This document shows, in pieces, positions 58,547 through 58,947 of a stretch of DNA of 64,000 bases. The stretch lies in the NCBI RefSeq assembly GCF_003334255.1, contig NZ_QOWU01000022.1. One strand, given 5' to 3'. The notes under the pieces were generated by a model. The model ran no database searches and was not told the origin of the DNA. It saw only the letters and a program-made list of their open reading frames with translations. The first letter of the stretch is position 1; each line of letters begins with the position of its first letter. The stretch comes from Escherichia coli (lineage in GTDB: Bacteria; Pseudomonadota; Gammaproteobacteria; Enterobacterales; Enterobacteriaceae). Made by a program: the position numbers and the translations under genes.

Positions 58547-58947
58547 ATGAAATTCCTCATAAATAGATGATTACGCAGCCCAGATAAACTGCACAGGGTT
58601 AAATAGTTACAAACATTCGAAATCTGGATATTGTTTTTAACAGAATAAATATATTGATTTAGCGAATATATTTATTCATTAAGTCAATATATTTATTCTT
58701 TAATTTATATTTTTAACGCATTTATTTCAACATAAAATATGGCGTAGTTGAGATTAAATCCGATAATACCTATGAATTAAATAATACAAGTAATTCATGT
58801 GGTAAATAAATCATCATGTTAATGAAGCATTTCTTATCGGCATCTATATGAAATTAAATAAAAAATAATTCTCAATAGTATTACAGTTATTATTGAATGT
58901 TTCAGGAGGTACAACCAGACAGATTTTTCTCGACGAATACCGAATTA

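Follow-up and report, generated by a model that had tools for sequence, protein, structure and literature searches.

An AT-rich, putative adhesin promoter region with a lineage-specific, non-conserved repeat upstream of a divergent bigA allele in Escherichia coli

Background

Autotransporter genes of UPEC have been reported to be repressed by H-NS (PMC3966885, citing Allsopp 2012 and Totsika 2012), and the promoters of the H-NS-silenced adhesin set, represented by upaC, upaG/ehaG and the F9 fimbriae, are very AT-rich, lie upstream of a large surface adhesin gene and belong to variable, probably horizontally exchanged segments. In K-12, the AT-rich spacer between paaY and ydbA, which lies directly upstream of ydbA, appears in a list of H-NS-associated 'promoter islands' (Panyukov and Ozoline 2013, PMC3661553). 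Other described systems are relevant for the arrangement of their elements. The Dam/OxyR region of agn43 (flu) features three closely spaced repeats just downstream of an autotransporter promoter, while long and stable hairpins are found near the 5' end of leaders in the ompA stem-loops and in the leader hairpins cleaved by RNase III. The tripartite operators of lambdoid phages, e.g. OR1-OR3 of phage 434, are composed of three sites, each pseudo-palindromic and about 14 bp long, which are spaced by about 21 bp and abut or overlap a promoter.

Here, we analysed the 401-bp spacer between the stop codon of ydbL and the start codon of bigA/ydbA (58547-58947, both genes on the minus strand) in a 64,000-nucleotide stretch of E. 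coli DNA, referred to as the window. The spacer shares with the upaC, upaG/ehaG and F9 regions a very AT-rich composition, a position upstream of a large surface adhesin gene and a location in a variable, probably horizontally exchanged segment; unlike that set, the spacer has neither a TCGWTWAATT motif with at most one mismatch nor A-tract phasing. Similarly to the K-12 promoter island, it is AT-rich and directly upstream of ydbA, but its upstream neighbour is ydbL instead of paaY, the two spacers are not homologous, and the one described here is not promoter-dense. As in agn43, three closely spaced repeats are located just downstream of a putative autotransporter promoter, but GATC is missing from the whole spacer and the repeats do not fit an OxyR-like consensus. 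The architecture of the 434 operators is mirrored by three sites of about 14 bp that are spaced by about 21 bp and abut or overlap the predicted promoter, whereas here the locus lacks a linked repressor gene, conservation fails at one of the sites, and there is no sequence similarity. Finally, as with the ompA-type and RNase III-cleaved hairpins, folding predicts a hairpin that is long and stable and lies at or near the leader's 5' end, but it is AU-rich, allele-specific and without covariation, and it is placed relative to a 5' end that is itself predicted.

Results and discussion

The gene downstream of the spacer (52841-58546, minus strand) is an open reading frame, intact in the window, encoding an autotransporter of 1901 aa, which is annotated in related genomes as BigA or 'BigA/YdbA N-terminal domain'. 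Its match to the NCBIfam model NF033178 (auto_BigA) reaches 1082 bits, under the curated cut-off of 3400, and its N-terminal 850 aa share 35% identity with K-12 YdbA. The name ydbA, under which the gene had initially been described, is acceptable, because the gene occupies the position of K-12 ydbA, between ydbL and pdxI, and its 3' end is K-12-like, the last ~450 nt and the spacer to pdxI having 97% DNA identity to K-12. A ribosome-binding site, GAGGAA (58553-58558, minus strand), lies 6 nt ahead of the ATG at 58546. Upstream of the spacer is a divergent allele of ydbL (58948-59271, minus strand), whose translation of 107 aa shares 63% aa identity with K-12 YdbL, and whose product is labelled YdbL family protein in related genomes; the flanking genes are thus those first noted, namely a minus-strand autotransporter from 58546 with ydbL upstream. 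No open reading frame of at least 40 aa lies wholly inside the spacer 58547-58947, and the small ones that occur there, just 26-39 aa long, were discarded as they fall in its poorly conserved distal part or overlap ydbL.

Some features of the autotransporter itself were also recorded. Directly after the N-terminal region, a tandem array of 30-bp units inside bigA (57961-58240, also reported at 57921-57975; 9.3 copies, 91% matches) encodes PDDGGDTPVP repeats. The length of BigA varies by strain, from 1901 aa in the window to 1981 aa in B-1109 and 2026 aa in 7/2, and the annotation of several assemblies has the gene split or partial at this array, which suggests copy-number variation, assembly breaks, or both. 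Residues 1-98 (58250-58546) include a signal peptide, the hydrophobic stretch LLPWAAVGLAAVATGVAVYAL and then a His/Asp-rich patch, HDDNNHHHDD; K-12 YdbA also has a hydrophobic stretch and a His/Asp-rich patch, despite the low identity.

Alleles with a divergent BigA N-terminus (66-78% aa identity) were retrieved with their contigs, including those indicated here as L013, L014 and L016, and in all the contigs retrieved the gene order is ydbH-ynbE-ydbL-spacer-bigA. The original prediction had stated that the region adjoins ydbL rather than the paa cluster and that this junction is strain-specific. The former is correct, as ydbL lies directly upstream, while the latter is wrong in degree: comparison across 5426 complete E. 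coli genomes revealed a minority haplotype, with this spacer allele present in 115 of them, while a further 375, O157:H7 included, keep the ydbL-spacer-bigA order but carry another spacer allele, of the L014 type. The L013 and L016 types were found in none of the 5426, while the K-12-type ydbL-feaR junction is present in 4196 and the K-12-type paaY-ydbA junction in 2380. One of the 115 spacer matches sits on a record labelled plasmid.

The extent of the divergence from K-12 was followed along the locus. Identity is ~99.5% through ydbH and ynbE and drops to ~65% exactly from the ynbE stop codon, near 59280-59300; upstream of the bigA ATG, no homology of the spacer to the K-12 spacer was detectable. 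Identity is regained inside bigA, where it amounts to 97% by the last ~450 nt, with the inner boundary upstream of ~53300. Since identity to K-12 collapses at the ynbE stop codon and returns at the bigA 3' end, the locus is a divergent haplotype extending over ydbL, the spacer and the bigA passenger region, and not the product of a deletion. A simple loss of fea/paa (a fea-tyn-paa deletion) was considered and rejected, as the divergence starts at the ynbE stop codon and reaches well inside bigA, covering its passenger region. A YdbL search of genome contigs for an outgroup, intended to polarise the distal-copy changes described below, returned two Citrobacter loci, neither of which has bigA. 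In both of them (one being Citrobacter amalonaticus, L009 3322-4100) a pdxI-like aldo-keto reductase gene comes directly after ydbL, with no autotransporter and no fea/paa genes; the segment intervening between the two genes is therefore variable across genera.

Regarding the promoter, a scan for sigma-70-like sites on either strand of 58400-59100 identified a single site, TTGAAA-N17-TAAATT, with 9/12 matches and on the minus strand. The putative -35 hexamer, TTGAAA, is located at 58725-58730 and the putative -10 region, TATAAATT, at 58702-58709, both on the minus strand; the latter can be read either as TAAATT with a 17-bp spacer or as TATAAA with a 15-bp spacer. One promoter-like site was observed in this simple scan against 4.1 expected from shuffles, and hence the region is not promoter-dense. 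Alignment of five allele classes showed that the spacers are unalignable except in two conserved places, i.e. the promoter block and the ribosome-binding site with the start codon. The upstream island has the form TTGAA(A/G), 15-16 bp, (A)ATATAA(T/A)T, in which TTGAA and AATATAA represent the sole invariant upstream island across the five classes, and AAGGA(A/G)T is conserved in those alleles reaching the ribosome-binding site. In L013, L014 and L016 the homologous block is the top-scoring site, TTGAA(A/G)-N16-TATAAT, with 10-11/12 matches. On a shorter evolutionary scale, the window and strain 7/2 show 0 differences over 58696-58731, compared with 26 in the 216 bp upstream.

Hexamers separated by a 16-18-bp spacer are thus found on the strand of the downstream gene and are conserved in diverged relatives, and the coincidence of the lone sigma-70-like site with the sole conserved block supports the assignment of the region, already proposed in the original prediction, as the putative upstream control region of ydbA/bigA. 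We infer a promoter at 58730-58702, with a transcription start near 58694-58698 and a leader of ~150 nt. This allele family has TATAAA or TAAATT where L013, L014 and L016 have TATAAT, with a spacer one base shorter, and its promoter may be intrinsically weaker than theirs. No intrinsic terminator, i.e. a G+C-rich stem ahead of a U run, was predicted in 58400-59100, nor between ydbL and the predicted bigA promoter in the window, L013, L014 and L016, and read-through from the ydbH-ynbE-ydbL operon could therefore matter more than the predicted promoter. The sole terminator-like hairpin encountered is in L013 (2455-2478), in the part of the leader that immediately precedes the bigA ribosome-binding site.

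The strong AT-richness initially attributed to the region upstream of ydbA was confirmed. The G+C content of the spacer 58547-58947 is 25.7%, compared with a mean of 49.6% for the 64-kb window, and the lowest-G+C 400-bp stretch of the whole window (25%) falls within it; TpA steps occur in the spacer at 13.2 per 100 bp versus 4.8. Several hundred bp of DNA with a G+C far below the average, such as this, are characteristic of H-NS-silenced regions. The high-affinity H-NS motif TCGWTWAATT is not present within 58547-58947 with one mismatch or fewer, and its best match near the repeats, having two mismatches, is no better than those in shuffles. The region had also been described as curved, but AA/TT power at 10-11-bp periods in the spacer does not exceed that of 1000 shuffles, and therefore the sequence gives no support to curvature; only five runs of A or T of at least 4 are present. 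Based on composition and on the precedents of the non-homologous K-12 paaY/ydbA spacer and of UPEC autotransporter genes, H-NS silencing of the spacer is plausible.

Within this AT-rich background, the original prediction had reported two copies of AATATATTTATTC separated by 8 bp, at about 58652-58690. Both copies exist, with coordinates ~10 bp away from those: the middle copy is an exact match at 58665-58677 and the distal copy an exact match at 58686-58698, both on the plus strand. The description as a two-copy direct repeat is nevertheless incomplete, as a third exact copy, proximal and inverted, had been missed on the other strand (58643-58655, minus strand); no exact copies beyond these three occur in the 64-kb window. 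The middle copy sits at the centre of a near-palindrome of 58 bp (58642-58699), an inverted repeat with 27-nt arms, 89% complementary, which is made of three 21-bp units, while the distal copy, which is the variable one, overlaps the predicted transcription start. Tandem Repeats Finder reported the array at 58644-58703, with a period of 21, 2.9 copies and 82% matches. The cores of the units are 14-bp near-palindromes, each consisting of the copy and one flanking base, which read GAATAAATATATTG, GAATAAATATATTC and CAATATATTTATTC on the minus strand and whose starts are exactly 21 bp apart. A phased three-unit array with a near-palindrome is thus a better description than a two-copy direct repeat. 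Given a start near 58694-58698, the array would span about +1 to +55.

The probability of such an arrangement arising by chance was evaluated with 2000 dinucleotide-preserving shuffles of the 401-bp spacer. In 33 of them (1.65%) an exact direct repeat reached 13 nt or more, whereas a 13-mer in three copies, with both strands considered, was seen in 1/2000. The repeat is real and goes beyond chance. The 58-bp element is found in one place per genome, an apparent second place being the palindrome matching itself. Weak matches elsewhere, located in the yhhY-tssD spacer of 165 genomes (78% identity, E = 2) and not palindromic, are chance AT-rich similarity. A dispersed repeat or miniature mobile element was accordingly rejected, there being a single copy per genome and weak matches elsewhere at chance level. 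An invertible promoter was also rejected, as the longer-range inverted repeats proved to be imperfect, short stretches of AT-rich sequence and none of the neighbours in related genomes is annotated as a recombinase.

The variation of the array among related genomes was then compared with that of its surroundings. The 115 spacer-bearing genomes comprise 8 with the spacer at 98% identity or more and 107 at ~92.5%. The exact distal copy, and hence the exact direct repeat, is found in the 8 genomes of the first class, while in the remaining 107 the distal copy is substituted at 2-4 of its 13 bases. In minus-strand reading, it is GAATAAATATATT in the window type, GAAAAGATATATT in GF4-3, GAAAAGATGTATT in VE-T9, LHM10-1, XJ5.2, GF60 and NY1601, and GAAAAGATGCATT in 7/2, which represents the ST405-like group. 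The middle copy is conserved save for one T-to-C change at 58668 in GF4-3, VE-T9, XJ5.2 and LHM10-1, and the proximal copy is invariant across the 12/12 related spacers aligned. In the 200 bp of 58532-58731, the window and 7/2 differ at five positions, four of which (58689, 58690, 58693 and 58695) are at 58689-58695, and such clustering in the distal copy has p ~3e-4 under uniform placement. When the window type serves to root the 92.5% class, the changes at 58690 and 58689 prove to have arisen inside that class, and therefore at least part of the series represents erosion of the repeat. Moreover, the variants at 58690 and 58668 (alignment A5 columns) yield conflicting groupings of GF4-3, VE-T9 and 7/2, which implies recurrent mutation (homoplasy) or recombination within the element. 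On a broader scale, no comparable repeat was found in L013, L014, L016 or K-12.

Taken together, our preferred explanation, to which we assign a probability of roughly 0.6, is that the spacer comprises the promoter and leader of a divergent bigA allele, that it is a likely H-NS target by virtue of its composition, and that the repeat is a drifting, lineage-specific duplication. A conserved sigma-70 promoter would drive a bigA leader of ~150 nt, AT-rich and untranslated, with the three-unit array just downstream of the promoter. H-NS would probably coat and silence the region through its composition and not through a specific site, as proposed for other E. coli adhesin promoters. The repeat would most likely have originated from local duplication of a 21-bp, self-complementary and AT-rich unit, and would now be drifting without a dedicated conserved regulator, so that any effect of it on expression would amount to allele-specific fine-tuning. 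Two aspects of the array count against this explanation, namely the good conservation of the proximal and middle copies within the family and the operator-like phasing of 21 bp, corresponding to two helical turns. The weaker -10 element, the possible read-through from the upstream operon, and the lack of an H-NS motif and of A-tract phasing in the spacer also speak against it.

Not far from the preferred explanation is the possibility that the repeat has no function, having arisen neutrally when AT-rich DNA of low complexity underwent slippage or duplication, and that it came to be located in the leader by chance. The two readings largely overlap and differ solely in that the latter denies any effect on expression; we consider it possible, albeit clearly less probable. 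It agrees with the lineage-restricted and eroding character of the repeat, with the frequency at which a single 13-nt direct repeat arises in shuffles, and with an eight-allele alignment in which the centre and distal arm of the element vary at 5/35 positions (14.3%), versus 13.9% for the upstream half. However, the rarity of the strictly phased three-copy arrangement in the same shuffles is not expected from it, and neither is the high conservation that the proximal copy and the 95 bp of leader next to it show within the family.

A specific regulatory role would require either a protein or an RNA-level mechanism. As to the former, the array could be a tripartite operator, on which a dimeric DNA-binding protein, bound co-operatively along a single helical face over +1 to +55, would prevent bigA transcription from initiating or elongating. 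The dyad symmetry of each core, the spacing of exactly 21 bp, the position immediately downstream of the predicted -10 element and the rarity of three copies among shuffles would all suit such an operator, as would the invariance of the proximal copy and the near-invariance of the middle one. In an operator array, dyad-symmetric sites with helical phasing are expected, as found here in the three 14-bp near-palindromes with a 21-bp period, but so is the conservation of all sites among relatives, whereas the distal site has 2-4 substitutions in 107/115 genomes and neither K-12 nor the other bigA alleles have the array at all. Furthermore, 15 regulator consensuses, serving as a lead rather than a curated test, were compared with the repeat, covering the classes ArgR, IHF, Fis, Lrp, CRP, FNR, Fur, PhoP, CpxR, TyrR, LexA, RcsB, LysR-type and OxyR-type, and none fits better than composition-matched shuffles. 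In particular, an ARG box was rejected because 6 bp separate GAAT from ATTC in the repeat, instead of 4. The absence of GATC from 58547-58947 excludes an agn43-type Dam-dependent switch. The genes annotated around the locus in related genomes (ydbD, pdxI, bigA, ydbL, ynbE, ydbH, ldhA, hslJ, ydbJ and nifJ) are structural or metabolic, none of them being annotated as a regulator, and no related copy of the array is found upstream of other genes apart from the weak yhhY-tssD matches. The operator is therefore improbable, and the idea that the repeat could be a binding site for a regulator is weakened by the confinement of the exact repeat to 8/115 genomes, by its absence from divergent alleles and K-12, and by a motif search yielding neither a consensus fit nor an H-NS motif.

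The alternative mechanism would act on the transcript, whose leader would begin with an AU-rich hairpin of 25 bp that alters mRNA stability or processing, by 5' protection or via RNase III cleavage; erosion of the stem among alleles would then tune expression between lineages. Folded as RNA, the 58-bp element forms a 25-bp hairpin of -21.7 kcal/mol (z = -9.4), beginning at about the predicted start, and folded as DNA it reaches -15.3 kcal/mol (z = -8.8); on the minus strand, GUUAAAAAC comes after the AU-rich hairpin. Over the alleles, stability falls stepwise from -21.7 to -17.1, -16.4 and -12.9 kcal/mol, as a tuning series would, and two of the four changes in the distal arm are A-to-G, which would keep G-U pairs on the minus strand. 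Nonetheless, no compensatory change accompanies this decrease and the variation falls either in a single arm or close to the loop. In L013, L014 and L016, no unusual fold was obtained for the first 73 nt of the leader (z from -0.2 to 0.1), structure conserved across the alleles amounts to -1.46 kcal/mol with 0 covarying pairs, and a search of 58300-59300 on both strands, up to E = 1, gave no match to Rfam 15 covariance models. The position of the predicted start is also critical, since with a start a few bases further downstream the outer stem would not be transcribed. An RNA element thus appears as unlikely as the operator, and both are weakened by the absence of conservation and of covariation. 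Least credible is the stronger claim that the array is an allele-specific control element at the bigA transcript start, whether operator or hairpin, in which the distal substitutions (58689-58695) have been selected and tune adhesin expression between E. coli lineages such as the ST405-like group.

Conclusions

The region upstream of this bigA allele is an ordinary AT-rich, putative adhesin promoter region with a real, lineage-specific and non-conserved repeat; it is ordinary because the repeat, a 58-bp near-palindrome confined to a lineage, does not represent a conserved regulator site. If the repeat controls expression, it would be a small case of natural promoter-proximal variation tuning an adhesin, although the results do not require that. 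The significance of the finding is limited and lies in assigning a promoter, in a form open to testing, to an adhesin allele of the BigA family that has gone unstudied and is carried by ~2% of complete E. coli genomes, including an ST405-like group, and in the depiction of the ydbL-ydbA interval as a multi-allelic recombination mosaic, and not as a locus where the paa cluster is simply present or missing.
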